Shown: piece after piece, positions 13,861-38,169 of the stretch
How the letters are laid out: each line of letters begins with the position of its first letter
How positions within the stretch are numbered: the stretch's first letter is position 1
DNA from: a virus
Length of the DNA: 64,000 bases
Reading direction: 5' to 3' (one strand)
Virus record (IMG/VR): IMGVR_UViG_3300036861_001052
Location: 64,001-128,000 of that record
Notes under the pieces: generated by a model
The model's input: the letters and a program-made list of their open reading frames with translations, nothing else
The model's database searches: none
What the model was told of the DNA's origin: nothing
Program-made: the position numbers and the translations under genes

Positions 13861-14394
13861 ATGTACCAGAGCACGGGACTTGGTCGCGGCGGCGGAGGTG
13901 GTGGGCACGGCGGCGGCGGTCATGGCGGGGGAGGCCACGGCGGTGGGGGTCATGGTGGCGGAGGCGGTGCTCGCGCGGGCGGTGGAGGCGGAGCGCGTGT
14001 CAGCGGAGGCGGCGGAGCGCGTCACGGCGGCGGCGGCCATCACGGTGGTCACCACGGCGGACGCGGCCGCGGTCCCACGAACGTTTTCGTGACCGACGGC
14101 GGCTGGGGACCTGGATGGGGCTGGGGGCCCGGCTATGCGGAGACCGTGTACGTCGACTCGTCGTGCGCTGTCGTCGACGACAGCGGCGTCTGTGTTTGTA
14201 AGTCTTTGAATCTCGACGGCAGCTGCGCGCGGCCCATCATCGGCTGGGTCGGCGGTCGCCCGGTCTACGGACTCGGCGCGGACGAAGAGAAGGCATCGGT
14301 CGCGCCCTGGATCGCCGGCGGGATCTTGCTCGCGCTTGCCGTCGGCGCGTACGCCCTCGATAAGAAGGGCCCAGCTCCGCTCCGTAGCTCGTAA
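13861..14394 (+). CDS. Gly/His-rich tail-anchored protein
   Basis: GGGGH repeats, Cys cluster, VYGLGA, C-terminal TM + KK. Confidence 0.75.
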   Translation: MYQSTGLGRGGGGGGHGGGGHGGGGHGGGGHGGGGGARAGGGGGARVSGGGGARHGGGGHHGGHHGGRGRGPTNVFVTDGGWGPGWGWGPGYAETVYVDSSCAVVDDSGVCVCKSLNLDGSCARPIIGWVGGRPVYGLGADEEKASVAPWIAGGILLALAVGAYALDKKGPAPLRSS

Positions 14395-14403
14395 TCGCGG
14401 ACC

Positions 14404-14655
14404 GTGCAGCTCAAGCGGTGCCGAGGAGTCTGCGGCGAAGAGTGGCCGATCGAGTCCTTCTCTCGCGATCCGGGTAACTCCGACGGTCGCCGGAACGAAT
14501 GTAACGCTTGCCGGCAGGAGCGGCGGGCAGCGCTCGCTCTGGGCGCAGCGCGGAAACGGCCGTGGCAGCACAAATTCGAGCGGGGCTATGACTACACGAC
14601 CGAGCGAGAGCGGCGGCGGGGCGAGGCTGCGGCGCGGCGGCGCATGATCGCATAG
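14404..14655 (+). CDS. Zn-finger protein resembling HNH endonuclease N-terminus
   Basis: CRGVC...FSRDPGNSDGRRNECNAC; no nuclease domain follows. Confidence 0.55.
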   Translation: MQLKRCRGVCGEEWPIESFSRDPGNSDGRRNECNACRQERRAALALGAARKRPWQHKFERGYDYTTERERRRGEAAARRRMIA

Positions 14656-14692
14656 GGGTTCTGGCCGGGAATTGCCCCGCCGGCGCCTCTAC

Positions 14693-14721
14693 TTGAGCTT
14701 CGGCCGGTGTCCCGGTAGAGT
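14693..14721 (+). promoter_or_regulatory. Sigma70-like promoter
   Basis: TTGAGC-17nt-TAGAGT. Confidence 0.45.
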
Positions 14722-14762
14722 GAAGGCTGCAGGGCGCTCCCGACGCCGGCCTCGGGAAAGTT

Positions 14763-15383
14763 GTGCGCTCGCTCCTCCACCATCAACCGGCGACCTTCAC
14801 ACCAGGCTATCCTGGTGCTCTCGGTTGGTATGGCGAGCCGATGGCGGGGACGCTCTCGAGAAATCCCCCGAACACGCTCGCGGGCTTTCAGGGGCACCCC
14901 GACACGCTTCGAGCGATGGTCCGCGCAGCGCACGGACCGCGGGGCGAGCAGAGCATCCTCGTCCGTAGCGTGACCGAGGAAGTGGTCGGGGACCTTCAGC
15001 CGAAGGACTACCTCGGTGAGATCTTGGCGATTCGCTACTGGGTGACCGAGCACATCCGGTACGTGAACGATTCTCTCCACGTCGAGATCGTGAAAGACCC
15101 GCAGCGAGTCATCGAAGAGATCCTCGCGCGCGGCCGCGCGGCGGAGGACTGCGACGGCATCGCTCTCATGATTGCCGTCATGTGCTTGCAGGTCGGACGC
15201 GTGGCGGAGTTCGTGGTGGTGGGCTTCGGCGAGCCGGGGCACTACAGCCACGTCTTCGTGAGAGTGAAGGAGCCACGGAGCGGCCAATGGATCGTGTGCG
15301 ATCCGGTTGCGGGCTCCGACGAGCGCGGCATGCTCGACCGCGTGACGACGTTTTACACGAAGAGCCTAGACGAGGCGGCCTAA
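14763..15383 (+). CDS. Transglutaminase-like (papain-fold) cysteine enzyme; candidate maturation protease
   Basis: WVTEHIRYVND, EDCDG (Cys), YSHVF (His), VCDP (Asp). Confidence 0.85.
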   Translation: MRSLLHHQPATFTPGYPGALGWYGEPMAGTLSRNPPNTLAGFQGHPDTLRAMVRAAHGPRGEQSILVRSVTEEVVGDLQPKDYLGEILAIRYWVTEHIRYVNDSLHVEIVKDPQRVIEEILARGRAAEDCDGIALMIAVMCLQVGRVAEFVVVGFGEPGHYSHVFVRVKEPRSGQWIVCDPVAGSDERGMLDRVTTFYTKSLDEAA

Positions 15384-16105
15384 TGTCGAGCAGGTTCCAG
15401 AGTCTCAGGCCTCCGTACCCGGTCTACGAGTCGCAACCGATCTTCGGCGGGGACTTGCCGACGATCGACGAGATCGGTCCGCCCGACGTCCGGGCTTCCG
15501 CCACGAACCCCTACTACGACATGTATCGTGGTGCGCACGGTCGGAATTTCTCTGGCCTCGGAGTAACCAACATGATGAGTGCAGACCGCGGTCTCCAGGA
15601 TTACCCGAACGAGCTAGATCTCCTGGCGGAGATGGACGACGTGCAAGGCAACGGCGTCTTCGATCCGCACGGCTCGCACGGAAACATCCATCCCGACGAG
15701 GGCGTCTTCGCCGATCACGAAAACCTCCCGGGCTATCTCGTCCGGGACGAGTACTACGCCCCGAGCCAGGTCATCGACGGCACGACGGGCGAGCCCGTGA
15801 TGTACGTGCCGGGCGGAGCCGTGGCGATCGATCAGTCGCAGCTCGACACCTACCGCGACCGGCAGCTCCTCTGGGAGATCCCGCCCGGGATGAGCGCTGA
15901 GCACCGAGAGGCGCCGCCGGACGGCGAGACGTGGATCCCACACGAGTACTCGTGGCCCATCTCGGGCATCGGCGAGGAGATTTCCCCGCCGGGGAGCGAC
16001 ACGGCGTCGCTTCCGGGGCAGAAGAGCAAGGTGCCGCTGATTGCGTCGTTCGCGATCATCGGCGTCGCCGTCGGAGTCTTCGTCGCAACACTGGTGAAGA
16101 AATGA
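15383..16105 (+). CDS. Tail-anchored putative virion protein
   Basis: FSGLG, ISGIG, C-terminal TM + KK. Confidence 0.75.
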   Translation: MSSRFQSLRPPYPVYESQPIFGGDLPTIDEIGPPDVRASATNPYYDMYRGAHGRNFSGLGVTNMMSADRGLQDYPNELDLLAEMDDVQGNGVFDPHGSHGNIHPDEGVFADHENLPGYLVRDEYYAPSQVIDGTTGEPVMYVPGGAVAIDQSQLDTYRDRQLLWEIPPGMSAEHREAPPDGETWIPHEYSWPISGIGEEISPPGSDTASLPGQKSKVPLIASFAIIGVAVGVFVATLVKK

Positions 16106-16512
16106 GCGGAGCCTACCAAAGCATTCTGCCGGAGTTCGATGTGTTCAGGTCGCCGGGTCCCGTGAGGGAGCCTCCCGGAGGTCAGATGCTCGGCGGCGTA
16201 AAGCCCCATCGCGCCGCCGCCTTCATCCTGAATCCCGGCGTTGCCGCGATGCGGGGCCTCGGGCAAACCGAGACGCCTGGCGCTCCGCCCGCGCCGGTCA
16301 TGCCGCCGGAGCCAAAGAAGCTTCCCGTGTGGGCCGCGGTCGGGATCTTGGGGCTCGTCGGATACCTCGGATACGAGATCGGGAGCGCGATGACGCCTTC
16401 CGGATCCAAGAAGACGACGTGGGGTCTCATCGGGATCCCCGTGACGCTTTTCACGGGCCCCTTGGGCCTCGGCGTGATGGGGATCGTCTCCAATCACCAG
16501 AGGAGAAGCTGA
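16102..16512 (+). CDS. Membrane protein, two C-terminal TMs
   Basis: MRGLGQ then TM segments + RRS. Confidence 0.75.
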   Translation: MSGAYQSILPEFDVFRSPGPVREPPGGQMLGGVKPHRAAAFILNPGVAAMRGLGQTETPGAPPAPVMPPEPKKLPVWAAVGILGLVGYLGYEIGSAMTPSGSKKTTWGLIGIPVTLFTGPLGLGVMGIVSNHQRRS

Positions 16513-16515: not shown

Positions 16516-16797
16516 ATGAGAGGCATTGGAGCGTACTCACTAACCACGGCGAGTCATCCAGATCCAACCGGAATGCGGTGCGGAGACGGGAGGACCGCTA
16601 TCAAGGAGTCGAACGGTAGCATCTGGTGCTACTCCGATGCCGAGCTCGCTGCGCTCAGGGCAGCTGGTGCTGGCGTTACGGTGCGCAACGCGACTCCATT
16701 CGAGCGGTTTACCCATTCGCTCACGGAAGTTCCGTGGTGGGTCTATGCAGGCATTGGCGCTGGTGGACTCTGGTTCTTGTTGGGGAGGAAGCACTAA
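16516..16797 (+). CDS. Small tail-anchored protein
   Basis: Starts MRGIGA; ends TM + RKH; visibly more AT-rich. Confidence 0.7.
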   Translation: MRGIGAYSLTTASHPDPTGMRCGDGRTAIKESNGSIWCYSDAELAALRAAGAGVTVRNATPFERFTHSLTEVPWWVYAGIGAGGLWFLLGRKH

Positions 16798-17123
16798 TGG
16801 GCTGCGGTTGCTCGGCGCCTCTCGGTGACTCGATGAACACCTACCAGGGCCCTGTTCCGCCCGGCGTGCCGAATCCGTTCACGCCGATGCTGCACTCGTT
16901 TCCGACGCGCTACCACGGCCCGATCTACACGCGCCCCATGAACCAATTCCCCTGGCGCGAGCGCCCGAACGACTTCGCGCTCGAAGAGGGCATGCAGGGA
17001 CTCGGCGCGGACGACGACAAGGCAATCCCGCCGGCGTGGAAGATGGCCGTCGCCGCGGGCCTCGTGGGCATCACGATCTGGGCCGTCGTCAAATGGGCGG
17101 ACGCCCAGCCAAGGAGGGCGTGA
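16797..17123 (+). CDS. Tail-anchored protein
   Basis: MQGLGADD then TM. Confidence 0.75.
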   Translation: MGCGCSAPLGDSMNTYQGPVPPGVPNPFTPMLHSFPTRYHGPIYTRPMNQFPWRERPNDFALEEGMQGLGADDDKAIPPAWKMAVAAGLVGITIWAVVKWADAQPRRA

Positions 17124-17578
17124 TGTACAGGCGCGACGGTCAGCCGATGCCCGAGCACGAAGAGGGCGCCGCCTTCTTCAAGCCGATTGCGGGGCCCGAA
17201 GCGGAGACGGGTCAGATCTGGGGCGTCCAGAAGAATCTCCTCACGCACGGGTTCAATGTGCACGGTCTCGGCGTCCCGGCGATCGATCCCAACACGAGCA
17301 TGATCTCCGACGAGGAGGCCGCGCTCCGGAGCGGAGCGGAGACGCTCCCCGAAGTGAGGATCGAGGGCCAGCCCATGGGCGGCGCAGAGTTCTACGAGAG
17401 CTCCTTCTGGAGACTTCTCGCTGTCGCCGGCATGGCCGTCGGCGCCTACCACGGATACAAGCGGAACAATTCCGTGGGTTGGGGCATCGGCTGGGGACTT
17501 CTCGGCGGACTCGTTCCGATCATCGTGATCCCGATTGCACTCGCACAAGGGATCGGAAAACCCAAAGGCAGGTCGTGA
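17123..17578 (+). CDS. Membrane protein, two C-terminal TMs
   Basis: VHGLG; GAYHGYKRNNSVGWGIGWG. Confidence 0.75.
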   Translation: MYRRDGQPMPEHEEGAAFFKPIAGPEAETGQIWGVQKNLLTHGFNVHGLGVPAIDPNTSMISDEEAALRSGAETLPEVRIEGQPMGGAEFYESSFWRLLAVAGMAVGAYHGYKRNNSVGWGIGWGLLGGLVPIIVIPIALAQGIGKPKGRS

Positions 17579-18438
17579 TGGACGTCAATACTCGAGGCGG
17601 TCTTTTTGGTCCCGGCGGCTACGGCGGCGGGATCTTCGACGGATCCCAGATGGGCTTCGGAGGGCTCGGACAGTCCGAGCAGGCCGCGGCCGGCATCGGC
17701 CTCGGCGCGACGACCGGCGCCTTTCAGTGGTGCAGCAAGACGAGCCCGTGCGCGACCGGCGATCCGAGGGTGAAGTCTCTTCAGACGGCGCTTAACCGCG
17801 TGCTCGCGGCGCACGGCATGAAGCCGCTCGTCGTCGACGGGAAATTCGGCGCGGCGACGTGCGGCGCCATGGTGTGGCTCGCGGCCGTGCCGGTCGCCGA
17901 GTGGCAGAACGACCCCGTTCTCTCGTCGGCGCACGACTACATGATCGACGCGAGTGGCCACGCCGTGTGCCAGTCGTACACGGCTCCGACCCGGGTCGGA
18001 TCCACGACGCCGGTCGACATCAACAAGGAGATCGGGATCCAGCTCCCGAGCGTGTCGGCGCCCTGGATGCAGCCGAATGGAGATCTGCCGGGCCTGCAGC
18101 AGGGGATCAATCACGATCTCTCCGAGCACGGATTCGATCCGATCTCCGTGACGGGCATGCTCGACGCAGAGACCTGCGGAGCGATGCTCTACGCGAAGGA
18201 ACACTGGGGGATGAGCGAGTACCTCCAGCGCTACGGCCAGAACTGCCAGGCGTTCACGGCGCCGCACCAGCACGCCGTGCCGGTAACGCCCGGGCCTGCG
18301 CCCACGCACGACGAGGAAACGCCGCACGCGGCGGTCGGCGCGAAGAAGAGCGGCGTCTCGACGGCGTGGGTTCTCGGCGGCCTTGCTGCCGCGGCGGGCG
18401 TCGCGGGTCTGGTCGCCATGAACAAGAAGAGGCGCTAG
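17578..18438 (+). CDS. Tail-anchored protein with two peptidoglycan-binding-like domains
   Basis: VKSLQTALN...VDGKFGAAT and LQQGIN...VTGMLDAET; FGGLGQ; TM + KKRR. Confidence 0.8.
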   Translation: MDVNTRGGLFGPGGYGGGIFDGSQMGFGGLGQSEQAAAGIGLGATTGAFQWCSKTSPCATGDPRVKSLQTALNRVLAAHGMKPLVVDGKFGAATCGAMVWLAAVPVAEWQNDPVLSSAHDYMIDASGHAVCQSYTAPTRVGSTTPVDINKEIGIQLPSVSAPWMQPNGDLPGLQQGINHDLSEHGFDPISVTGMLDAETCGAMLYAKEHWGMSEYLQRYGQNCQAFTAPHQHAVPVTPGPAPTHDEETPHAAVGAKKSGVSTAWVLGGLAAAAGVAGLVAMNKKRR

Positions 18439-19049
18439 TGTCGAACTTCGGTCCCATCGCGTACGAAGACTTCTCCCAGCTGAACGCTCGGTGGGGAGAG
18501 GCGCGGCCTGCCGTTGCCGGTCTCGGCGTCGTGTCGGGGCCGCACGACTACGTCGATCTCTCCTACCTGAACGCCCACTACCGGCCGATCCAGCCGGCGG
18601 GCGTCGGCATGGGAAACGGGATCCTCTCCTCGAACTCGCTCGGCATGCTGTCGGGCGGAGGGCTCGGCGAAGATCCGAGCTATCCCTGGCGGGAGTACAG
18701 CGCGGACACGAAGGCGCTCCAGCAAGCGACCAACGAGGCCCTCCAGGCGCACGGCTACGCCCCGATCACGGCCGACGGAAAGCTCGGGCCCGCGACGTGC
18801 GGCGCCATCCGCGCCATGTGCCAGTACGCCGGCGCGGGCTGCGAGGCTCCGGGGACCTGTCAGGACTTCGCGGCGCCTGTGAAGGCTGGCGGCGGCTCGC
18901 TCCTCTCGAAGTCGACCGGGACGAAGACGACGACCGCGTCGCGCGCGAGCATGTTCGGGGGCGGCGGCACGAACTGGATGCTCATCGGCGGCGCGATCGC
19001 TGCGGTCGCGGTCGGCGGCGCCATCATCTACAAGGCGGCGAAGAAATAG
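18438..19049 (+). CDS. Tail-anchored protein with peptidoglycan-binding-like domain
   Basis: TKALQQATN...ADGKLGPAT; VAGLG, GGLGE; TM + KK. Confidence 0.8.
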   Translation: MSNFGPIAYEDFSQLNARWGEARPAVAGLGVVSGPHDYVDLSYLNAHYRPIQPAGVGMGNGILSSNSLGMLSGGGLGEDPSYPWREYSADTKALQQATNEALQAHGYAPITADGKLGPATCGAIRAMCQYAGAGCEAPGTCQDFAAPVKAGGGSLLSKSTGTKTTTASRASMFGGGGTNWMLIGGAIAAVAVGGAIIYKAAKK

Positions 19050-19421
19050 ATGCCGACTCCGATCGACGTCGTGCAGTCCCGGCTCGGTGTCCCGCGATCG
19101 GGACACTGGGATAGGACCACCGACGGGGCGATCCTCGCCTACCAGTCGAGCGGCAAGGGTCAGTACCCGATGCGGCCGACGGGGCATCCCGATCCGGCGA
19201 CGCTCGCCAATCTCGGCTACTTCGATCCCAAAGAGATGCTCCCCGAGCGCTGGGCGAACTACCTCGGGGGCGGGGCTAAACCGGGGACGTTCGGGAGGGA
19301 CGTCCGGACGGCGATCGATCAGGTCCCGCGCTGGGCGTGGGGCACGGTTGCCGCGGCGTTTTCGGTGTTCGCGATCATGGCGTACCGGACCGATCGAAAG
19401 CGCGAGAAAGGCGGCCGCTAG
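19050..19421 (+). CDS. Peptidoglycan-binding-like tail-anchored protein
   Basis: VQSRLGV..SG.WD..T..AI.AYQ...TG..D.AT...LG; TM + basic tail. Confidence 0.7.
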   Translation: MPTPIDVVQSRLGVPRSGHWDRTTDGAILAYQSSGKGQYPMRPTGHPDPATLANLGYFDPKEMLPERWANYLGGGAKPGTFGRDVRTAIDQVPRWAWGTVAAAFSVFAIMAYRTDRKREKGGR

Positions 19422-20302
19422 TGCTCGGAGATCTCGCCGACATGTACGACGAGCTCGCCGGAGCTCCGGGGATCCCGTGGGCGGGCCTCACGGCCGACGG
19501 CCACGGCATCGAGGAGAACGGCTACGACCCGACGTACATGGACTACATGCTCAAAGACGGAGCGGAGTTCTTCGGCGTCGTCGGAAGCCTCGGCCCGGAC
19601 TTCGTAGCGAAGTATCGGACGCTCCGTGAAGATGAAGGGCGCGCGAGCGTGACGCGCATCATGGCGATCATCGATCAGATGGGCACCGACGTCTGGCAGG
19701 CGGTGAAAGACGGCGACTGGGACGCCTTCGTGGCCTTGCCGCGAACGACGACCGTCGATGCGTTCGCGGCGCTTGCGGCCGCTGCCGCCAACGGCGCCTT
19801 CCTCCACTACGACGGCATCATGGAAGCGGCGATGCGGGCGAAGAAGCTCAAGCCCGCCGAGGTCGTCTCCCACGCGAACAACGTGACGAAGGTCTTTCAG
19901 ACGTTCGTGGACCTCGACAAGAACGGTCACTTCGCCGACTTGAAGAAGAAGCCGCCGCCCGTGGCGGGTCTCGGCCTCGCGCCGGCTCTCATTGCGGCCA
20001 TCGTCGCCATCGGCGTCGTGCTGCTCCTCGGGCTCTGCTATCTCATCTACGTCATAAAGCTCGCCGCCCCTGCGCAGCAGAAGGCGCTCGAGTGGTGCGA
20101 CAAGGTTGCCAAGGAGGGATCCAAGGAAGACGCGATGGCGTGCGCAAATCTCGCCGCCAGCATGGAGCAAAAGGGAAACCCGCTCCTCGGTAACATCTTC
20201 GCCCAGGCGCTCACTCCGATTTTCGTGGTGCTCGCCATCGGTGCGGCATTCTGGATCGCGCCGACGGTCATTCAGGGGATTCGCAAAACTCGAGCCGCGT
20301 GA
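19421..20302 (+). CDS. Membrane protein (two TMs)
   Basis: VAGLGL precedes first TM. Confidence 0.75.
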   Translation: MLGDLADMYDELAGAPGIPWAGLTADGHGIEENGYDPTYMDYMLKDGAEFFGVVGSLGPDFVAKYRTLREDEGRASVTRIMAIIDQMGTDVWQAVKDGDWDAFVALPRTTTVDAFAALAAAAANGAFLHYDGIMEAAMRAKKLKPAEVVSHANNVTKVFQTFVDLDKNGHFADLKKKPPPVAGLGLAPALIAAIVAIGVVLLLGLCYLIYVIKLAAPAQQKALEWCDKVAKEGSKEDAMACANLAASMEQKGNPLLGNIFAQALTPIFVVLAIGAAFWIAPTVIQGIRKTRAA

Positions 20303-20652
20303 TGTCGACGCTCATCTACTCGAGGTGGCGTCCGGACGAAGGTGGCTACGACTACTTTCAGTCCTCGCTCCGCCAGAACATCAACGACGATCTGCCCGCG
20401 CCCGAGCTCGTGGCCTCGAAGATCGGCGTGCCGTCGATCGAGGCGGGGCGGCCCATTCCGAATGACTCGGTGCCCATCGGAAGCGGCGAGGTGGCAGTGG
20501 GCCTCGTCGCCCCGGTCGACAGCTCGCGCATCGTCCGGAGGACGCGGTCCCTTTCCGGGAGCGATCCCATGAGCGTCTACAAGAGCCCGTGGTTTTATCT
20601 CGGCGGCGCGATCGCCGTCGGCCTCATCTATATGGTCATGAAGGACAAGTGA
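20302..20652 (+). CDS. Tail-anchored protein
   Basis: C-terminal TM + KDK. Confidence 0.75.
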   Translation: MSTLIYSRWRPDEGGYDYFQSSLRQNINDDLPAPELVASKIGVPSIEAGRPIPNDSVPIGSGEVAVGLVAPVDSSRIVRRTRSLSGSDPMSVYKSPWFYLGGAIAVGLIYMVMKDK

Positions 20653-21218
20653 TGACGGTCCGGGTCATAGAAACCAAGGACGTCGCTACGAAAACGTTCG
20701 AGACGTTTTACGATCGGCCAAGCAAGAGGGAGATCCCGCTCGAGTTCGGGTGGCCGAAGGAGCTCCAGGAGGTCGGCGTCGGCAAAGCGGAGATGTACAC
20801 CTCGAACAAGTGGAAAAAGAGCCGCTCGGACTTCGAGGACTACAAGCACGTCGCCGAGGGCCTTCGCACGGTGTACGCCGAGCCCGGCTTTCTGCGAGTT
20901 GGCGCGCACCCGGCGCGCATGATGCCGGTCTACGGACCGATGGCGAGCTTCGAGGAGCCGATGCCGAAGCACTTCGCGAGGCTCGGGCCGCTTCTCGGTG
21001 TGCAGGTCAGGCTCTACGACCGGGACGACAAGGGTGAGCTCTACGTGCCGGGCGGCGACGATCGGGTCTACGAGGTCGAGATTGCGCGCGCCTGGCTCGG
21101 CTCGGCCAGGCACCCAGGCACCAAAGAGACCTTCCTCTTCGTGTACACTCCGGATGGCGTCCACATGATCCTCACGGGAGACAAGCTCTCCATCGAAAAG
21201 GACGGCATTGCCGGGTGA
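20652..21218 (+). CDS. Soluble hypothetical protein in structural block
   Basis: TGATG overlap; beta-rich. Confidence 0.75.
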   Translation: MTVRVIETKDVATKTFETFYDRPSKREIPLEFGWPKELQEVGVGKAEMYTSNKWKKSRSDFEDYKHVAEGLRTVYAEPGFLRVGAHPARMMPVYGPMASFEEPMPKHFARLGPLLGVQVRLYDRDDKGELYVPGGDDRVYEVEIARAWLGSARHPGTKETFLFVYTPDGVHMILTGDKLSIEKDGIAG

Positions 21219-23143: not shown

Positions 23144-23289
23144 CCGACGCCGACGTGAAGAAGGCCCTCCTGGCGATCGCCGCCGAGCTCAAGCGCCAGG
23201 AGCACGCGGAGATCCGCCTCGGCATCATCGGTCTCATCGGACTCGGTCTCATCGGAACCGCTGGCTACTTCCTCTGGAGGAAGCGGTGA
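23140..23289 (+). CDS. Very small tail-anchored protein
   Basis: ATGA-coupled; TM + WRKR. Confidence 0.7.
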   Translation: MTDADVKKALLAIAAELKRQEHAEIRLGIIGLIGLGLIGTAGYFLWRKR

Positions 23290-27447: not shown

Positions 27448-27483
27448 ATGGCAAAACTGACGAACGTCAGAGAGCGTGTGCAT
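27448..27483 (+). CDS. Putative major capsid protein, exon 1
   Basis: AAAGGAAA RBS; MAKLTNVRERVH, ends in T at the predicted 5' splice site. Confidence 0.8.
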
Positions 27484-29028: not shown

Positions 29029-29075
29029 CTTCGAACGCAGGTTGATCGCGCGCCTGAGCCAAGCGCGGTACGGCA

Positions 29076-29110
29076 CGGACGGCGGTTTCCCTCAAAAGAG
29101 CCGCCGTCCG
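29076..29110 (+). terminator. GC hairpin after putative capsid gene (stabiliser or attenuator)
   Basis: CGGACGGCGG / CCGCCGTCCG perfect 10-bp stem; no U tract. Confidence 0.5.
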
Positions 29111-29139
29111 GTACTCCTCACGGAGGCACGAAAAAAGAC

Positions 29140-30132: not shown

Positions 30133-30140
30133 GGAGAATT

Positions 30141-31046: not shown

Positions 31047-31048
31047 CT

Positions 31049-31173
31049 TCGGTGAAGGAGGCCAGCCGGCCGCCGTCGCGCTTCCAGCGGGTATGGACGA
31101 ACGCACCCCTATCGGACATGGGGGCTGTCGAGTCTTACTCGGGAAACGGCGGACGGCTGGCCTCCTTCACCGA
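31049..31173. repeat. 28-bp inverted repeat enclosing three small hairpins; candidate structured RNA
   Basis: 31049-31076 and 31146-31173 are reverse complements with 1 mismatch. Confidence 0.85.
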
Positions 31174-31191
31174 GCTCGAGGCGTCATGGTG

Positions 31192-31953
31192 ATGCAGAGC
31201 TACGTCGAAGGCGGCGCCTCCCAGATGGGGACGGCGTGGGACGAGATCGGGATCTTGCCTGCTCCCCCCGGAACGTCGCTCGGCCAGATGGACGCGATGA
31301 GTCTCTTCTCGGAGGTCTCGGACGCGCTCCGCCTGCGGCCCATCGGTGTCGTGACGCCCTGGGCAGCACGCGTCGGTGATCTCGAGTGGGAGGACATTCC
31401 CCATCCCGACACGAACGTGATGCTCTGGGAGCTCACGGACGCGGCCATCAATGCCGTGCCGGAGGTGACGTTCGGGAGTCCCTTGCCGTTCGTGGGGATC
31501 GTGACGTCGCGGCCGATGAGCGTCGCAGAGACGCGAAAGATGTGGGAGGGGACAGCCTACGCTCCGTACGAGACGCAAGCCGTCTACCGGCAGGACGACG
31601 CGAAGGATCCGCCGACTGCGCTCTTCTTGCACTGGGGCGAGCGCATCGACATCGCGAAGCTTCCGAAGGAGGTCTTGCTCCTCGGCCCCCGCGCTTCGGC
31701 CGCCGCGGGAAGCCTCGTCTTCGCGGCTCAGATCCCAGCGCAGAATTCGACCACGCGCGCAGCTCCGTCGAGCTCGTTTGCTTCGGTCCTCGCGCGGCAG
31801 GCGCCGCTTCCGCCGGAGCCGCCGCCGAATCCCACGCCGGGCCCGATCCCTCTCGGCCCTGTCAAAGAGGACAAGATGAATCTCGGCGTGCCGATCGCCG
31901 TAGGGCTAGGGGCAGCGGCTCTCGGCTTCTTGCTCTGGAAGAGGAAGAGGTAA
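31192..31953 (+). CDS. Tail-anchored protein
   Basis: Pro linker, TM + WKRKR. Confidence 0.75.
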   Translation: MQSYVEGGASQMGTAWDEIGILPAPPGTSLGQMDAMSLFSEVSDALRLRPIGVVTPWAARVGDLEWEDIPHPDTNVMLWELTDAAINAVPEVTFGSPLPFVGIVTSRPMSVAETRKMWEGTAYAPYETQAVYRQDDAKDPPTALFLHWGERIDIAKLPKEVLLLGPRASAAAGSLVFAAQIPAQNSTTRAAPSSSFASVLARQAPLPPEPPPNPTPGPIPLGPVKEDKMNLGVPIAVGLGAAALGFLLWKRKR

Positions 31954-31958
31954 GGCGC

Positions 31959-32333
31959 ATGTATACGGGCGTTGGACAAGACTCTGGCATGGTGTTTCTT
32001 CCTGGGAGCATCACTCCGCGCCCGACGGCGCCGGCCCCTTCCCAGCCGCCGCGCCTGATCCTTAAGCTCAAGCCGGACGGCGGCACGTGCGACTTCGCCG
32101 AGCAGTGCGCCGGTCACATTTGCCGGAACGGCCTCTGCCGCTCGGGCGTGATACTCAAGCAGCCATCGCGTCCCCCGGCCGAGTCGACACCAGCGCCCGT
32201 CCCGTCGCTGGTCGTCAGCGAAGGCGAGCCCACTACCGAGCCCGGAGCTCCGAAGTCATCGAAGCTCCCGCTCTACATTGCGGCGGGCGGCGTTGCCGTG
32301 CTCGGCATCGCCTGGCTCGTCATGAGAAAGTAG
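31959..32333 (+). CDS. Cys-knot-like tail-anchored protein
   Basis: MYTGVGQ; C-x5-C-x4-C-x4-C; TM + RK. Confidence 0.75.
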   Translation: MYTGVGQDSGMVFLPGSITPRPTAPAPSQPPRLILKLKPDGGTCDFAEQCAGHICRNGLCRSGVILKQPSRPPAESTPAPVPSLVVSEGEPTTEPGAPKSSKLPLYIAAGGVAVLGIAWLVMRK

Positions 32334-32344
32334 GAGATAGAGAG

Positions 32345-33172
32345 ATGTTCGTAGGACAAGGCATGGGCCGGCGCGCACAAGGCGGTCTCGGTCTCTATCA
32401 GCCGACGCCTACCGGCATCAAAGTGACGGCGCTTCCGACGTGCGCATTTCCCGCGGAGAAGGCGGAAGCAGCGAGCAAGTGTCAGACGATGAGTCTTCAC
32501 GGGCTCGGTCAGACGATGACGCGGGTCACGGGGCCGATGACGGGCAGGCTCGCCGGCTACTCGCCCTGCGACATCGTGAACTACCCCGTCTGCCCCGAGC
32601 CGAAGTGCATCGACGAGCAGACGGTCACCACGATCCTGAAGTGCGCCAACGGCCTACCGGTAGAGGGCGTCGACTGTAACACGCCGAGCACCGCTCTCTA
32701 TCTCTACTCGCTGTCGCTTCTGCCCTATTGCGGCAAGCCGAGCTTTTTGGCGCCGCCGCCCTCGTGTCTCTCGAAAGACCAGCAAGCCCTCATCGGGTAT
32801 TGCGACGCGCATCCCGACTTCAAGGGCCCGAACAAGTCGTGGAACAACATCTGCTGGGTCAACACGCACGACCCCGTGTACTGGGCGAAGCTTCGAGCGG
32901 TGAGGCCGTGCCCGGTGGCCGCGCCGGCCGCTCCACCTCCGGTGAGGCCCCCGCCGGTCTTGAAGCCTCCGCCCGCGGCGCCGCCGCCGGTTCGTCCTCC
33001 TCCATCGGCTCCGCCGCCCGTCACGGCGCCGCCGTCGGACATGGTCCCGCCGGAAGACATTCCGGACGAGCCGGAGCATCGAGAGTCCGCCATGATGGGG
33101 CTCTGGGGGATCCTCGCGCTCGTGGCCGTGGGAGGCGGGGGATACTACCTCTACAGGCGCTACAAGAGATGA
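32345..33172 (+). CDS. Cys-rich tail-anchored protein
   Basis: AGGAG RBS; GQGMG, GGLG, LHGLG; Pro stalk; TM + RRYKR. Confidence 0.8.
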   Translation: MFVGQGMGRRAQGGLGLYQPTPTGIKVTALPTCAFPAEKAEAASKCQTMSLHGLGQTMTRVTGPMTGRLAGYSPCDIVNYPVCPEPKCIDEQTVTTILKCANGLPVEGVDCNTPSTALYLYSLSLLPYCGKPSFLAPPPSCLSKDQQALIGYCDAHPDFKGPNKSWNNICWVNTHDPVYWAKLRAVRPCPVAAPAAPPPVRPPPVLKPPPAAPPPVRPPPSAPPPVTAPPSDMVPPEDIPDEPEHRESAMMGLWGILALVAVGGGGYYLYRRYKR

Positions 33173-33366
33173 CCATGAACCTCGTCGCCATCGCCGGAGT
33201 GCCCTTCGGGGAGAGCGTGACGCTGCCCCCGGGCTCGGGCCCCTCACAGCCCTACGTGGCGACGACAGAAGACAAGAAGGCGATGTGGATGGCGCTAGCG
33301 GCGCTCGGCGTCGGCGCAGTCGTGGGCTACGTCTTTCTCGGTGACATGGTGCGGAGGGGCGCGTGA
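33169..33366 (+). CDS. Small tail-anchored protein
   Basis: ATGA-coupled; C-terminal TM. Confidence 0.65.
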   Translation: MTMNLVAIAGVPFGESVTLPPGSGPSQPYVATTEDKKAMWMALAALGVGAVVGYVFLGDMVRRGA

Positions 33367-33587
33367 GAGATCCCGTCCGCACAGCCGCATCGGCTGCCGA
33401 GGTCCTCGGGCCCGCGATGGACGATGTGGGAGGCCCGGTCGGGCTCGTCGGGCGGGCCATGGGGCTCGGAGCCGACGAGATCGACGCCGGCATTCCCGGC
33501 TGGGGCTGGTTTGGCGTCGGCGTCGTAGCCGGCGGGATAGCCATGTACTTTTTGCGTGACCGGCTCCGCGCTTTCGCCGCGGACTGA
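33363..33587 (+). CDS. Small tail-anchored protein
   Basis: AMGLGADE then TM. Confidence 0.7.
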   Translation: MRDPVRTAASAAEVLGPAMDDVGGPVGLVGRAMGLGADEIDAGIPGWGWFGVGVVAGGIAMYFLRDRLRAFAAD

Positions 33588-33621
33588 GCCACGGTAGGAT
33601 TGACTCAGAAGGACCATCCAC

Positions 33622-34584
33622 ATGAACTCACTCGGCGCCTACTTCGGAAGCACGCGAATCGTTCAAGGGGCAGGTGGGCTCGGCGACGACTACCTCCAGG
33701 CCTATGCCGACGGCGTCGTCGGCGGGAGCGCCCCGAATGCGGAGATGCCGGGTCCGATCACGGCGTACCGCGACGGAAGCCTCGGCCGGATGTCGCACCA
33801 GTACGGCGGAGGCGACTCGGGCGAGCTAGCCGCTTGGGCTGACGGCGTCGTTGGTGGGAACGCCCCCGACGCGGTCCCGGGCGAGCTCTTCGCCTATCAC
33901 GACGGAAGCCTCGGTGCCGAATCGAACCCCGCGACGATCGGCGACGACATCTCGTCCTATCACGACGGCGTCCTCGGCGACCGCAAGAACTTCGTTGTCC
34001 CTGGCTTCGGACCGCTCCAGTCCTTTCACGACGGAAGCCTCGGCGCGTACGCGGCTGCGATCGGAGCGGCGGCGGAAAACGTCCTCGATCTCGGCGACGC
34101 CAATGTCTTGAAGGAACTCAAGGTGGCGATGAGCTTCATCGCTCCCGAGCAGACGCTCACGATGGACGGCCAGAAGGTGTACACGCCCGACTGGTACACG
34201 AACGGGATCTGGGATCCTCAGGCCTCGCTTCTCTGGCAGTACATCGTCAGTAAGACGAGCGCCTTCAAGGGCAAGAGCGTCTCGGTCGACATCGGCGCGC
34301 AGACCTACCCGAACGCGACCGGCATCGGCTTCATGGTGGCGGCTCTAGCCGCGCCGCAGTCCGGGACCTACGGCCCCGACTACGTGAAGAAGAACCTCCC
34401 CGCGCTCTACGCCTGGTTTACGGCCGGCGGAGGCACAGTGCTCGCTCCGTACCTGTCCCTCACGGACAAGACGAAGGGCGCGCGCGGCACGCCGAGCTCG
34501 GAGATGAAGATGAGCACCGTCGCGCTCTACGGCCTCGGAGCCGTGGCGCTCTTCGGCGTCGCACTCGTCTTTTGGAAGAAGTGA
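33622..34584 (+). CDS. Tail-anchored protein with six [YWF]xDG[SV][LV]G repeats
   Basis: Repeats in 33697-34045; TM + WKK. Confidence 0.8.
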   Translation: MNSLGAYFGSTRIVQGAGGLGDDYLQAYADGVVGGSAPNAEMPGPITAYRDGSLGRMSHQYGGGDSGELAAWADGVVGGNAPDAVPGELFAYHDGSLGAESNPATIGDDISSYHDGVLGDRKNFVVPGFGPLQSFHDGSLGAYAAAIGAAAENVLDLGDANVLKELKVAMSFIAPEQTLTMDGQKVYTPDWYTNGIWDPQASLLWQYIVSKTSAFKGKSVSVDIGAQTYPNATGIGFMVAALAAPQSGTYGPDYVKKNLPALYAWFTAGGGTVLAPYLSLTDKTKGARGTPSSEMKMSTVALYGLGAVALFGVALVFWKK

Positions 34585-34587
34585 GCC

Positions 34588-34824
34588 ATGTGGTTAGCAT
34601 TCACAGGAGCCGACAGAATCTGGCCTGCCTGCAATAGCCAGAGGTGCGGATTTGTAAAGGTTCCTGGCACAAACACGAGCCAGCCGGATCTCAATTGTGA
34701 TCCGGATGCGTGGCAGCACTGCGTCGACTCGTTGGCTCACGAACAACAGACCCAGCAGCGCATGGTCATAGGCGCCGGACTCGTAGCAGTGGTCGGCATG
34801 GCGTGGCTATTTTTCAGAAAGTGA
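34588..34824 (+). CDS. Small Cys-containing tail-anchored protein
   Basis: Four Cys; TM + RK; more AT-rich. Confidence 0.7.
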   Translation: MWLAFTGADRIWPACNSQRCGFVKVPGTNTSQPDLNCDPDAWQHCVDSLAHEQQTQQRMVIGAGLVAVVGMAWLFFRK

Positions 34825-34834
34825 GTTCGTCATC

Positions 34835-35350
34835 ATGATGAGCGGACTAGGAGCAATGCGGCAAGAGAGCCCGGACGTGGCGCGGCTCAGGCACGCGCTC
34901 ACGGCATGGGCGGCGAGCCCGAACGACCGCGCGGCGATCAACGGACTCTACGGCGCCGCGTGGATCTGGACGGCGAAAGTCAGGCCGCGGTTTACGGCGC
35001 TCGACAATGCGCTCGCTTCCGCTCTCGCCCAGTGGGGTAAGAGCCCGAGCGACGTCTCGAGCCAGCGCCTGGTGAGCGCGGCGGCCGCGCGGTGGATGGC
35101 GGGCGTGCACGCGCTCGGTGAATACTTTTCGGGCACTGGCGAATACTTCGCGGCTCAGGGCATGGGAGAGTACTTCTCTGGAACGGGCGAGTACTTCTCG
35201 GGTGCGGACGGGCTCGGAGCGGACATCGCCATGGTCTGCTCCGAAGAGTGCATGAAGTACGTCAAGGCCGACAAGAAGCGCCTCATGCTCATGACGGGAT
35301 CCATCGCGCTCGGCCTCGGGCTCTTCGCGGGCATGGTCGTCTTTCGGTGA
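34835..35350 (+). CDS. Tail-anchored protein with four GEYF repeats
   Basis: MMSGLGA; LGEYFSGTGEYFAAQGMGEYFSGTGEYFSG; DGLGAD; TM. Confidence 0.8.
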   Translation: MMSGLGAMRQESPDVARLRHALTAWAASPNDRAAINGLYGAAWIWTAKVRPRFTALDNALASALAQWGKSPSDVSSQRLVSAAAARWMAGVHALGEYFSGTGEYFAAQGMGEYFSGTGEYFSGADGLGADIAMVCSEECMKYVKADKKRLMLMTGSIALGLGLFAGMVVFR

Positions 35351-35371
35351 CGGAGAAAGGGCCTCTCCGTT

Positions 35372-35992
35372 TTGAAAGACATCTTCGCAACTTTCGGTCG
35401 TAAGGTTTCCCGGATCCCCTGGGGGGCCGTTGCGGGCGTTGTCGTCGAGCAGCTCCATGCGCAGGGCGGCGTCGCGGGGCAGGTTCTCGCGCAGCTCCAG
35501 GAGTGGGCGGGTCATCTCGCCGCGAACGCCGTCCGTGAGTGGCCCGGAACGATCGCGAGTCACGCTCCCTGCGCCTGCCCGAACGTAGCTTCCGGCACAC
35601 CGAAGAAGTGCCACGCCTCGGCCGTCGTCGTCTGCGACATCTGCAATCGCAAATGCTGCCTCGCGCACGCTCGGATCGATTACCTAGCCGGCGCCATCTG
35701 CGAGATCTGCATCGGCGAAGCCAAGGCGCGGGCACGGGCGGCGGGACCAAAAGCTCCGGGTCAGGCGGCTCCGAAAAAGGACGTCGACCGGGCGTTCAGG
35801 ATCTTGGATCTCGGTCGCACGGCGACCTGGGAGGAGATCAAGAAGCGCCACCGCGAGCTCGTCTTCAAGCACAACGCCGACCGGCCGCAGACGGACAAGA
35901 TGCGAGCCCAGAACACGGAGCGCCTGAAGAAGGTGAACTGGGCGCTCGAGGTCCTACGGAAGTTTCATGAGGACAAGAAGGAGGCCGCGTAG
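35372..35992 (+). CDS. Zn-finger plus J-like domain protein (HPD replaced)
   Basis: CDIC...CLAH...CEIC; AFRILDL...ATWEEIKKRHRELVFKHNADR...LKKVNWA. Confidence 0.75.
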   Translation: MKDIFATFGRKVSRIPWGAVAGVVVEQLHAQGGVAGQVLAQLQEWAGHLAANAVREWPGTIASHAPCACPNVASGTPKKCHASAVVVCDICNRKCCLAHARIDYLAGAICEICIGEAKARARAAGPKAPGQAAPKKDVDRAFRILDLGRTATWEEIKKRHRELVFKHNADRPQTDKMRAQNTERLKKVNWALEVLRKFHEDKKEAA

Positions 35993-36383: not shown

Positions 36384-36413
36384 GGGGTGCCCTGCTGTTT
36401 TAGCAGGTGCAGA

Positions 36414-36800
36414 ATGACGTACCACCCCGTAGGTGCCGGCCCTGGGCCCGTCGAAAAGTACAAGGTCGACGCGCCGTGGCCCTGGGGCGACAACACGGAG
36501 ATCGCGCTTCCGATCCAGGAGCTCGTGAGCGACGCCTGGGCTGCGGCTCGTCCCCGCATCGACGAGCTCGAGGCGAAGCTCATCGACGACATGGAAAACG
36601 AGATGTCTCTCTACGGGCCACGGCTCGTGAAAGACATCATGGACAACGTCGTCACTCCCGAAATGAACAAGGAGCTCGAGGTCGCGATGGCCGAGCTCGA
36701 CGTCATGAAAACGGACGTCACGAGGACTCTCTTTGCCGTGGGCGCTTCTCTCGTCATCGCTGTCGGGCTCGGCGCCTGGTGGCTGAAGAAGGGTAAGTGA
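36414..36800 (+). CDS. Tail-anchored protein, paralogue of 37087
   Basis: VGAGPG.V..Y.VD.P.PWG..TE..LP.Q.LV.DA; TM + KKGK. Confidence 0.8.
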   Translation: MTYHPVGAGPGPVEKYKVDAPWPWGDNTEIALPIQELVSDAWAAARPRIDELEAKLIDDMENEMSLYGPRLVKDIMDNVVTPEMNKELEVAMAELDVMKTDVTRTLFAVGASLVIAVGLGAWWLKKGK

Positions 36801-37084
36801 TGGGCAAGCGCGGCCCCGTCTTCTTTCAGATCCCCGTCGAGCTCAGGTTCGTGGTGACGGTGCAGCTCCCGGCCTTGCCGGAGTCGGGGCAGTACATGTC
36901 TCGGCCGTACGGTCTTTCGCCGGCCGAGGGGAAGGAACTGCGGGACGAGGCAGAGGCGATTGCGTGGGAGTTTTTGGAGCGGAAGATCGATGTGGGCGGC
37001 GGAGAAGCCATTGCGGCTCACGTGGAGGAATGGGAGCTCACTCGAGGCGGTCGCTCTGGCGTAAAAAGTCGAAGGGGCAGATAA
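36800..37084 (+). CDS. Hypothetical protein
   Basis: TGATG overlap. Confidence 0.6.
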   Translation: MGKRGPVFFQIPVELRFVVTVQLPALPESGQYMSRPYGLSPAEGKELRDEAEAIAWEFLERKIDVGGGEAIAAHVEEWELTRGGRSGVKSRRGR

Positions 37085-37086
37085 CG

Positions 37087-37320
37087 ATGTACCGAGCCGT
37101 CGGCGCTGGACCCGGAGACGTGACGACCTACCGCGTGGATCTCCCGCTTCCGTGGGGCAGGGACACGGAGGTGACTCTGCCCATGCAGGCGCTCGTCGAC
37201 GACGCGTACGCCGCCATGGAGCCTAACCTCACGGCCGCCATCAACAAGGGAGCGATCGTCATCGCTGCGTCCGTGGCCCTCGCCGTAGGCCTCGCAGCGA
37301 TGTGGATCAAGAAAGGATGA
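37087..37320 (+). CDS. Tail-anchored protein, shorter paralogue of 36414
   Basis: Same N-terminal motif; TM + KKG. Confidence 0.8.
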   Translation: MYRAVGAGPGDVTTYRVDLPLPWGRDTEVTLPMQALVDDAYAAMEPNLTAAINKGAIVIAASVALAVGLAAMWIKKG

Positions 37321-37321
37321 C

Positions 37322-37561
37322 GTGGCTTCTCTCTGGCGCTTCGTCGTCGACATCTACGAGCCCGGGACGAGCACGGCGTATCCGGTGCTCCGCCACGTCT
37401 TTTTTGGCCTCGACGAAGAGGAAGCCTACGGCACCTTCGAGGCGCACATGACGACGGACGAGTTTTTGCGCGGGTGCGTGGAAAAGGGCCGCTGGAACGG
37501 CCTCGACTGTATTGCCAAGGCGCAGTGGCTTGCTCCGGGAGAGCAAATCCCCGAAGATTAG
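37322..37561 (+). CDS. Hypothetical protein
   Basis: Fills gap; protein-like composition. Confidence 0.6.
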   Translation: MASLWRFVVDIYEPGTSTAYPVLRHVFFGLDEEEAYGTFEAHMTTDEFLRGCVEKGRWNGLDCIAKAQWLAPGEQIPED

Positions 37562-37570
37562 GAGACCCCG

Positions 37571-37879
37571 ATGTCCTACTGGAACGTTCCGGACCAAGAC
37601 TACCATGAGCTCCCCGTGGCGACGCCGTTCTGGCAGTCGGCGCCGGTGCCGGGCTGGGGCAAAAACCCGCTTCGCGCCGGTCCCCGGCGGGTCGGCATCG
37701 GCGGCGGGATCTGGGAAGAGGATGCGTTTCTCCCTCACTACATGTCGATCGGCGAAGATCCGGCGGCGAGCTACCGCGAGACGAGCTACGGCGTCGTGGC
37801 GCTGTCTGGCGCGGGCGGGATCATGCTCGGGATCTTGTTCGGCTACGCCTGGTGGGGGATGAAGAAACGGGCGGCGTAG
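37571..37879 (+). CDS. Tail-anchored protein
   Basis: AGGAG RBS; RVGIGG; TM + KKR. Confidence 0.75.
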   Translation: MSYWNVPDQDYHELPVATPFWQSAPVPGWGKNPLRAGPRRVGIGGGIWEEDAFLPHYMSIGEDPAASYRETSYGVVALSGAGGIMLGILFGYAWWGMKKRAA

Positions 37880-38169
37880 TGAACGGCTACGGATACGTCT
37901 CGTATCCGACGAGCACGGGACAAGTCGAGTCTCGGGTCGCCGTCGTCACGTGCCCCGAGTGCTCCTTTCTCAAGAACGGCGACTGCGTCGTCTGCATCGA
38001 CGGCGAGGATCATCCAGCCTGCAATGGATGCTCGGACGGTCAGATCGTCTGGTACCGGCGTCCGCTCTTCGTCTCGGTAGCAACGGCAATCGTCGTGTCG
38101 ATCATCGCGGGCATTACCGTGCATCAGATCGAGAAGCATTCCTCGGTGCTTCGAAGGCTAAGGTCATGA
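37879..38169 (+). CDS. Cys-rich tail-anchored protein
   Basis: CPEC, CVVC, CNGC; TM. Confidence 0.7.

Follow-up and report, generated by a model that had tools for sequence, protein, structure and literature searches.

Why should one block of a virus genome encode some 27 tail-anchored proteins, of which many carry the same short peptide, beside the gene of a papain-fold enzyme? This question is raised by positions 13.8-38.2 kb of a 64,000-nucleotide stretch of DNA (hereafter the window), which covers bases 64001-128000 of a 138,414-bp virus record (IMGVR_UViG_3300036861_001052) that has direct terminal repeats and is rated complete. The peptide, with the pattern [MILVFYW]xG[LIVM]G and hereafter called the tag, proves to be a conserved short linear motif, and the block is best explained as a module for building the particles of bacterial viruses that form an undescribed group. 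The enzyme gene lies at 14841-15383, and we tentatively favor site-specific cutting of the tagged proteins by its product. Feature coordinates are window positions unless assigned to the genome, and all genes of the block that are listed here lie on the plus strand.

The tail-anchored block and its tag

Genes were called with a codon-usage gene caller, and a protein was taken as tail-anchored when a hydrophobic 17-mer lay 15 residues or fewer from its C-terminus and was followed by at least one Lys or Arg; hydrophobic segments were located by a Kyte-Doolittle scan only, with no trained predictor. By this criterion, 25 of the 38 called genes in the block encode tail-anchored proteins, compared with 14 of 204 in the rest of the 138-kb genome. 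Together with two tail-anchored genes that the caller overlooked (16516-16797 and 34588-34824), the total is 27, which agrees with the count of about 27 between 13861 and 38169 given in an earlier note made from the letters of the window. The same note saw no obvious signal peptides, and indeed the first 35 residues are free of hydrophobic segments in all 25 called tail-anchored proteins; four of the 25 have more than one hydrophobic segment in total. Since large N-terminal domains without signal peptides should stay in the cytoplasm, the strongly basic tails would be placed on the far side of the membrane. Such an arrangement would run counter to the usual positive-inside tendency.

All 14 pentapeptides that had been quoted from these proteins are found on the plus strand. 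G[LIVM]G lies outside the membrane helix in 15 of the 25 called tail-anchored proteins, and the strict tag in 11. Counted outside hydrophobic segments and compared with 300 residue shuffles within segments, the tag occurs 15 times in the block against 3.4 expected, none of the shuffles reaching 15, and GLG occurs 20 times against 4.2 expected. Permuted controls stay at expectation (LGG 4 against 4.1, GGL 6 against 4.3), and GAG, GSG, GGG and GTG show no enrichment. Elsewhere in the genome the tag occurs 11 times against 13.5 expected, hence without enrichment, so the contrast between block and remaining proteome that the earlier note had looked to is present. Because the shuffles keep composition, the Gly and Leu content of the proteins, which that note had allowed for as a trivial cause, does not explain the tag.

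The tag is also conserved in position. In alignments with four relatives, 33 tag sites of this genome that lie outside membrane helices were followed, and in 80 of 108 comparisons a G[LIVMF]G is retained no more than three aligned residues away, compared with 1534 of 3243 (47%) for control Gly tripeptides of the same proteins, and column identity is 73% in the tag and 50% in its flanks. The enrichment is replicated in 24 non-redundant related loci, where the genes downstream of the enzyme gene hold 143 tags against 29.4 expected (the highest of 200 shuffles gave 46) and 170 of 278 of them encode tail-anchored proteins; upstream of the enzyme gene, 17 of 319 are tail-anchored, with 23 tags against 17.8 expected. 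The tag is thus a conserved short linear motif of non-compositional origin.

A logo of 287 tag instances in 25 genomes describes the tag residue by residue. At P4, two positions ahead of the first Gly, M/L/V/Y/I/F is found in 150 of the 287 instances (Met 3.3-fold, Leu 2.2-fold and Val 1.9-fold), and Ser is favored at the position that follows. The residue between the glycines is Leu in 141 instances, Val in 48, Phe in 37, Met in 33 and Ile in 28, and the residue after the tag is Asp, Glu or Ala in 114 of 286. This middle residue also differs by lineage, being Met/Phe-rich in L042, L045 and L047 and nearly always Leu in L038 and L044 (L042, two Leu, five Met and two Phe; L044, 14 Leu, one Met and no Phe). 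The counts are small and were picked after the data had been seen, and they are not used as evidence; if the contrast holds, many proteins have shifted together, which would be a pointer to a single reader.

Three features of its placement point to a small shared reader of the tag. First, the tag may start at residue 1, with the initiator Met as its hydrophobic position (MRGIG here, MRGLG and MAGLG in relatives), or at residue 2-3 (MYTGVG, MTYSGLG and MMSGLG), and since it can open at residue 1, nothing upstream of it is needed. Second, it survives ahead of the anchor. In the 22-member family of the protein encoded at 15383-16105, a pre-anchor G[LIVMF]G is kept in 15 members (16 with GYG) within a linker that is otherwise gappy and unalignable, and the first tag site of this family is G[LIVMF]G in 13 of 22. 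Third, it stands at module joints. A PTRYHGPIYTRP module is followed by a G-hydrophobic-G tag in 10 of 12 proteins, and what comes after it differs between viruses. At least four kinds of C-terminal module occur there: an anchor alone, a PG-binding-like domain, a coiled coil and the membrane module of 17123-17578. In the logo set, 34 instances are found among the first 13 residues of a protein, and 47 precede a helix by 30 residues or fewer.

The enzyme

The start of the enzyme gene had been placed at 14763; orthologues make 14841 more likely, which gives a protein of 180 amino acids (aa). The view of its product as a papain-fold enzyme with a Cys-His-Asp triad is well borne out. C104, H137 and D154, in Cys-His-Asp order, are invariant in 28 aligned sequences, and the AlphaFold model (pLDDT 87.8, pTM 0.86) gives Foldseek matches of the transglutaminase fold, including 3isr (putative cysteine protease, E 9e-5), 3kd4, PNGase, LapG, the pseudomurein endoisopeptidases PeiP and PeiW, and TgpA, and then arylamine N-acetyltransferases. 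For 3isr, 3kd4, 2f4o, 4u65, 8z4f and 6g4h, the probability is 0.99-1.0 and the TM score 0.37-0.53. The Pfam Transglut_core model (PF01841) matches at E 1.3e-4 and 22.6 bits against a cut-off of 23, and many close homologues have a precomputed PF01841 assignment. On the strength of the model, a transglutaminase/papain-like fold can be assigned with confidence. Profiles of the enzyme and of the capsid-like protein described below gave nothing meaningful when run against PDB sequences.

The enzyme has neither a membrane segment nor a signal peptide and would therefore share a compartment with the N-terminal parts of the tail-anchored proteins. It is the candidate protease of this virus, as Peptidase_C5 (PF00770) and Peptidase_C48 (PF02902) have no match at E <= 1 genome-wide and the S78, rhomboid and sortase families have none in the genome either. 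It is not needed for lysis, because the genome has a separate amidase lysin. A predicted complex of the enzyme with residues 165-218 of the 15383-16105 protein scored 0.01 against a mark of 0.32, a result which counts neither way.

The enzyme and the tag in related viruses

Related IMG/VR contigs of 35-140 kb were reached via the enzyme and a 330-aa protein of the block (29140-30132); the enzyme gene is present in five of five relatives, and gene order through the block is conserved. A profile search with the enzyme gave 34 loci at 30-85% identity. The related contigs are mostly of 110-182 kb, with a distant branch of 33-37 kb. The enzyme gene is also present in all 17 IMG/VR contigs found via the capsid-like protein and in all three metagenome-assembled genome (MAG) records, and it heads the module in every locus seen. 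Relatives that keep the motif without such an enzyme, a possibility that the earlier note had raised, were not found among these 17 contigs and three records. In public metagenomes the enzyme is represented by 360 clusters and the capsid-like protein by 691, many on contigs longer than 100 kb. In full-text literature searches neither the virus group nor the tag was found described, nor was any phage maturation enzyme of the transglutaminase fold; we regard the group as undescribed, widespread and uncultured.

The distant branch is informative for the link between the enzyme and the tag. When a complete 35-kb virus was compared with the 242 called proteins of the 138-kb genome, only the enzyme was detectably common (phmmer E 5.9e-15; the next values were 0.0015 and 0.0024). 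The enzyme of this small virus matches Transglut_core at 56.1 bits and is itself tail-anchored, and its gene is directly followed by those of four tail-anchored proteins, each with GLG in its first 45 residues, and then of a small Arg-rich membrane protein. In L085 and L086, which are two of the three listed enzymes of this branch and do not include the 35-kb virus itself, the tag is placed between the anchor of the enzyme and its catalytic domain, as would be expected of a protease that frees itself.

Some side observations were made on these relatives. In the 33-37-kb group (L052/L063-L064, L084-L086), the two members checked have terminal repeats, and the group encodes the tail-anchored enzyme, an anchored SLT-type lysin, a small His/Arg-rich membrane protein and a P-loop protein without a Pfam match. 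The bins of the relatives found via the capsid-like protein (L054-L061) are assigned to Pirellulales (two), Phycisphaeraceae, Planctomycetota, Pseudomonadota, Pseudomonadales, Deltaproteobacteria and Acidobacteriota. A Planctomycetota host (four of eight bins) is a lead only, as binning can misplace virus contigs.

Possible roles of the enzyme and the tag

What could the enzyme do with the tag? Site-specific proteolysis is the most likely reading of the sequences, and we hold it tentatively. The enzyme would read the tag and cut there, during or after assembly. Short N-terminal peptides would thereby be trimmed off, soluble modules would come free of their membrane anchors, and the Arg-rich DNA-binding region of an 818-aa protein (24816-27272) would be parted from its Gly-rich tail. 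The scissile bond may lie between the middle hydrophobic residue and the second Gly, as at the sites of the adenovirus protease (adenain), or after the second Gly; in the latter case the hydrophobic residue would occupy P2, the position that usually determines recognition by papain-like enzymes.

Several points weigh against proteolysis. The removal of only 4-6 N-terminal residues would be an odd use of a protease, 206 of the 287 tag instances are neither N-terminal nor within 30 residues of a helix, and about a third of the instances are expected by chance. In one subgroup of the 15383-16105 family (8 of 22), LAG[TSA][DENS] replaces LAGLG at the first site, so Gly is not always required at the last tag position. 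In the 33-37-kb branch the tag is patchy, and the listed proteins of L084 have none. The Pfam match of the enzyme is just below its cut-off, and non-proteolytic transglutaminases, PNGase and N-acetyltransferases are among its fold matches. Lastly, the link between enzyme and tag is a co-occurrence within related viruses of common ancestry, which cannot discriminate within the group because no member lacks the enzyme, and remote homology between the other proteins of the 35-kb and 138-kb viruses could lie below the reach of phmmer.

The strongest rival, possible but doubtful, is that the tag is a docking peptide which binds the shell, a scaffold or a chaperone and thereby recruits the anchored proteins into the particle membrane or ties the membrane to the shell. 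The enzyme would then have another role, for example in cross-linking, in deamidation or on the host envelope at entry. Exposed linkers and N-termini, where tags are found, suit docking as well as cleavage, a TSGLGG stretch in the N-terminal arm of the capsid-like protein resembles the tag, and a J-domain protein and an AAA+ unfoldase are encoded in the genome. For an action on the envelope, phage-borne wall-cutting enzymes of the same fold exist, with PeiP and PeiW among the fold matches. However, the enzyme is the only candidate reader that is detectably common to the 138-kb and 35-kb viruses, an amidase lysin is already at hand, and the second Gly of the capsid-like stretch varies across 28 sequences. 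The recombination of modules exactly at the tag is also more typical of processing sites, though it is compatible with docking.

Rather unlikely is a reader of host origin, such as a protease, an insertion machine or a quality-control machine, to which the viral enzyme would be linked merely by sharing a genome. The host range seems restricted, with four of the eight bins in Planctomycetota, and a host factor would also account for conservation across unrelated proteins. This reading has to face the position of the enzyme gene at the head of the module in every locus seen, and an enzyme which in the small genomes is anchored like the tagged proteins and in two of the three listed cases bears the tag itself.

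It is unlikely that the enzyme is a transamidase using the tag for covalent bonds, for example in cross-linking as by the bacterial spore-coat transglutaminase. As a variant, cleavage at the tag may be followed by transfer of the acyl group to an amine, for example that of a new N-terminal Gly, of a Lys or of a lipid head group. Transglutaminases and the acyl-transferring N-acetyltransferases have this fold and this Cys-His-Asp triad, the trimming of 4-6 residues to expose a Gly would be more sensible if the new N-terminus is a nucleophile, and both an acyl donor and an amine would be generated at each site. Against this, Gln is only 1.3-fold enriched after the tag and 1.5-fold at P3, and we know of no precedent for transamidase chemistry in a virus particle. 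With such weak enrichment of Gln beside the tag, a Gln-Lys site of the classical transglutaminase kind is not evident.

Still less probable is a cut-and-join transpeptidase, in which the upstream part would be held as a thioester and passed to an exposed Gly N-terminus, a Lys or a lipid amine; if true, membrane, core and shell proteins would be welded into a covalent network by sortase-like chemistry on a transglutaminase fold. The weakest explanation, a by-product of Gly-rich flexible linkers with no specific reader, is largely refuted: the linkers are Gly/Pro/Ser-rich and Gly makes up 9.6% of the block compared with 8.3% of the rest of the genome, but the shuffles that keep this composition, the LGG and GGL controls, the positional conservation above control tripeptides and the replication in 24 loci all speak against it.

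Comparison with known systems

Proteolysis by the enzyme would have its closest counterpart in adenovirus maturation. For the adenovirus protease, the published consensus is (M/I/L)XGX|G, and includes the pVI site IVGL|G (PMC4246237). A second form of its sites is (M/I/L)XGG|X. The tag fits the published consensus, as the earlier note had said, with a hydrophobic residue at P4 and Gly at P2 and P1', a resemblance in sequence only. Both systems have one virus-encoded cysteine enzyme and sites across many unrelated particle proteins (in adenovirus pIIIa, pVI, pVII, pVIII, mu, pTP and L1-52/55K), and one candidate substrate here is of an Arg-rich, DNA-condensing type (24816-27272). However, this enzyme has no Peptidase_C5/C48 match, a Cys-His-Asp order of catalytic residues and a transglutaminase-like fold, the host is bacterial, and the candidate substrates are mostly membrane-anchored. 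Of the adenovirus-like maturation that had been proposed, the fit to the site therefore stands and homology of the enzyme to adenain does not: 'adenovirus-like' is an analogy, because of the absent C5/C48 match and the catalytic order, and with the enzyme belonging to another family, any resemblance would have arisen by convergence.

A second comparison is with LapG and the BTLCP family. The earlier note was right that transglutaminase-like folds include proteases, as LapG is a proven Cys-His-Asp site-specific protease of this fold which frees a protein from its anchorage (PMC3032545). The enzyme shares the fold class and the triad with LapG, whose structures appear at Foldseek ranks 7, 30, 31 and 47, but it has no Peptidase_C93 match at E <= 0.1, and the 35-kb relative reaches only 16.3 bits, below the cut-off of 27. 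LapG works in the periplasm on a single giant adhesin; the enzyme lacks a signal peptide, and its substrates would be about 20 small proteins. The cleavage motif of LapG is Ala-Ala, which differs from the tag.

As in the membrane-containing tailless phages PRD1, PM2 and their relatives (Varidnaviria), a block of small membrane proteins adjoins a conserved capsid-like gene, whose product has the length of PM2 P2 (267-271 aa), and terminase and HK97-protease have no Pfam match in this genome. The membrane proteins are here tail-anchored, and the genome has 138 kb compared with 10 kb in PM2. PRD1 and PM2 both have genomes several times smaller than this one. A published evolutionary model has an ancestral PRD1-like phage without a maturation protease and derives the protease gene from a eukaryotic transposable element (PMC6260650).

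The pre-anchor class of tags, with a short motif, a hydrophobic helix and an Arg/Lys cluster, resembles sortase and exosortase signals. Here, however, N-terminal signal peptides are lacking and many tags are far from the anchor or N-terminal. The sortase, exosortase and rhomboid families (PF04203, PF09721, PF01694) have no match in the virus genome. On this ground and for the lack of N-terminal hydrophobic segments, a sortase-like sorting signal is rejected.

Should the enzyme indeed cut at the tag, an apparently membrane-containing bacterial virus would have a maturation system with a defined consensus site. The protease fold would differ from those that adenoviruses, poxviruses and asfarviruses employ, although the sites would follow nearly the same logic, and maturation would be coupled to a protamine-like core protein. 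A simple code of five residues, with one Cys enzyme, would then serve the sorting or release of about 20 unrelated proteins in a virus particle.

Capsid-like protein and particle type

The most conserved protein of the group is the capsid-like protein of 267-271 aa. In this genome its gene (27448-29028) is split after codon 12 by a 777-nucleotide insertion (27484-28260), and it is unsplit in four relatives. Comparison with these orthologues places the first 12 codons (MAKLTNVRERVH) at 27448-27483 and the remainder, from QPFYDT, at 28261-29028. The insertion holds an open reading frame with weak LAGLIDADG matches (E 0.002 and 0.009, below cut-off), and an Rfam search of 27200-28400 gave no intron family at E <= 0.01. 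The tag-like TSGLGG lies near the N-terminus, in a conserved arm.

The capsid-like protein may have the vertical jelly-roll fold of a Varidnaviria major capsid protein. The model is beta-rich with eight strands, at moderate confidence (pLDDT 61.7). Its Foldseek matches are weak (best E 0.32) and fall among picornavirus, iridovirus, HHIV-2, SPV1 and SH1 capsid chains; those by VIA are likewise weak (best Z 6.6), against generic beta-sandwiches and some capsid proteins. A lead from the protein atlas named the PM2 P2/PRD1 P3 capsid families at a score of 0.76-0.77, which is below trust level. With hhalign, the alignment of the capsid-like protein showed no similarity to PM2 P2 (probability 0.1) or to a 256-aa protein of the 35-kb virus.

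It is reasonable to infer a tailless particle with a membrane, because 27 anchored proteins lie in the structural module and no tail genes were seen. Among 60 different genome proteins, Pfam, PHROGs and NCBIfam gave no capsid, portal, terminase or tail family, and neither terminase nor an HK97-type protease has a Pfam match in the genome. For a packaging ATPase of the FtsK/A32 type, the genome gave only low-scoring matches; PF01580 (FtsK/HerA-type) reaches 14.8 bits within the DnaB gene and PF04665 10.8 bits within the gene of a DnaC/IstB-like AAA protein.

Genes of the block

Ahead of the enzyme, a tail-anchored protein of 82 aa is encoded (14146-14394), which has VYGLG at 40-44, a few residues ahead of its helix. 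Directly after the enzyme gene, the 240-aa tail-anchored protein at 15383-16105 has two tags, FSGLG at 56-60 and ISGIG at 193-197, the second about 22 residues ahead of the helix. Three smaller tail-anchored proteins follow, with MRGLG at 22-26 (108 aa, 16186-16512), with MRGIG at the N-terminus (93 aa, 16516-16797, one of the two genes overlooked by the caller), and with the PTRYHGPIYTRP module, MQGLG at 66-70 and then the anchor (108 aa, 16797-17123). The last of these begins with MGCGCS (16797-16820), which is MGCGCA in the closest relative, and more distant orthologues have a MAGLG/MRGLG tag there. The MGCGCS start resembles eukaryotic dual-acylation signals, presumably by coincidence.

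The tag continues through the next genes. A membrane protein of 151 aa (17123-17578) has VHGLG at 46-50, a tail-anchored protein of 286 aa (17578-18438) has FGGLG at 27-31 together with weak PG_binding_1-like repeats, and one of 203 aa (18438-19049) has VAGLG at 26-30, a site that reads VAGLG, MAGLG or MSGLG in four of four orthologues. A tail-anchored protein of 123 aa (19050-19421) has no motif. In the 286-aa membrane protein at 19442-20302, which has several helices, VAGLG at 174-178 abuts a helix and is VAGMG or MKGLG in orthologues. The tail-anchored protein at 20302-20652 (116 aa) lacks the motif in this genome. The following conserved soluble protein (188 aa, 20652-21218) is found across the large-genome group; it had no match in Pfam, PHROG or NCBIfam, and BLASTP against a 463-aa protein of the 35-kb virus gave nothing.

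Next come four tail-anchored proteins, of 642 aa (21215-23143, LRGLG at 16-20), 49 aa (23140-23289), 349 aa (23286-24335, N-terminus MTYSGLG) and 119 aa (24335-24694, PGLG abutting the helix). The 818-aa protein at 24816-27272, in which Arg and Lys make up 40% of residues 1-490, has hydrophobic helices and a Gly-rich tail with MRGLG and three GMGEYF repeats; orthologues are present in four of four relatives, with the motif sites kept. The GMGEYF-type repeat is a second recurring peptide, which overlaps the G-x-G tag, and related GEYF/GAYF/GEYV repeats occur in the 34835-35350 protein, at the start of the 33622-34584 protein and in distant relatives (in L049, GEYVETGEYVETG).

Beyond the capsid-like gene, the conserved 330-aa protein at 29140-30132 consists of an N-terminal coiled coil and a beta-rich part and is likely structural. 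It is followed by a conserved soluble protein of 301 aa (30141-31046), whose VKGLG at 12-16 is IAGLG or IKGLG in two orthologues. Tail-anchored proteins then resume, with 255 aa (31186-31953), 124 aa (31959-32333, N-terminus MYTGVG) and 275 aa (32345-33172), the last with LHGLG at 51-55, which is LRGMG, LSGLG, LRGVG or IQGLG in four of four orthologues. After one of 63 aa (33175-33366), a 74-aa protein (33363-33587) has AMGLG at 32-36, about 12 residues ahead of the helix and kept in four of four orthologues, and a 320-aa protein (33622-34584) has AGGLG at 17-21. The second overlooked gene (34588-34824, 78 aa) precedes a tail-anchored protein of 171 aa (34835-35350), which reads MMSGLG at an alternative start, 34835, and has, besides its GEYF repeats, ADGLG ahead of the anchor.

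The Cys-rich protein at 35372-35992 has a C-terminal J domain and is conserved in three relatives; the Pfam DnaJ model matches at E 3.3e-6 and 27.6 bits against a cut-off of 27.8, and the NCBIfam DnaJ models match weakly. It may recruit host DnaK to handle the anchored proteins. Two tail-anchored paralogues follow, one of 128 aa (36414-36800) with the N-terminus MTYHPVGAGPG and one of 96 aa as called (37030-37320) which contains MYRAVGAGPG, and they have in common a different N-terminal peptide, [YH]-x-V-G-A-G-P-G, which is conserved in relatives. The block ends with tail-anchored proteins of 102 aa (37571-37879) and 105 aa (37852-38169), the latter Cys-rich.

Genome context

The genome has a G+C content of about 65%, and the genes are closely packed on one strand, with overlapping stop and start codons and Shine-Dalgarno-like sequences. 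It encodes DnaB, a DnaC/IstB-like AAA protein and a lysin with Amidase_2 and PG_binding_1 domains, and because of these genes the host is taken to be a bacterium with peptidoglycan. In the scan of the 60 proteins, matches were confined to the following families: transglutaminase-like, weak PG-binding, weak Synapsin_N, collagen, glycosyl- and methyltransferases, TPR repeats, DnaB, AAA, integrase, transposase, amidase, DnaJ, weak LAGLIDADG and nucleotide kinase. A blastn search of window 27501-35500 against a phage collection gave no match, and the protein at 716-2419 gave nothing from the protein atlas or a PDB sequence search.

Further genes were observed outside the block. On the minus strand, genome 127806-129353 (window 63806-64000 and beyond) encodes an AAA+ ATPase (515 aa, PAN/FtsH/Cdc48 type) that lacks a protease domain and could be an unfoldase or an extractor of membrane proteins. 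Window 51849-55685, also on the minus strand, encodes a 1278-aa protein, an unusual length for an integrase, with a tyrosine-recombinase (Phage_integrase) domain at residues 454-525, and genome 22961-24160, outside the window, encodes a DDE transposase that has a SWIM finger. Lastly, at least five collagen-repeat proteins with GPTG-type triplets, together with several glycosyl- and methyltransferases, are encoded at window 38171-42457 and genome 34836-42641, and possibly form glycosylated fibres.

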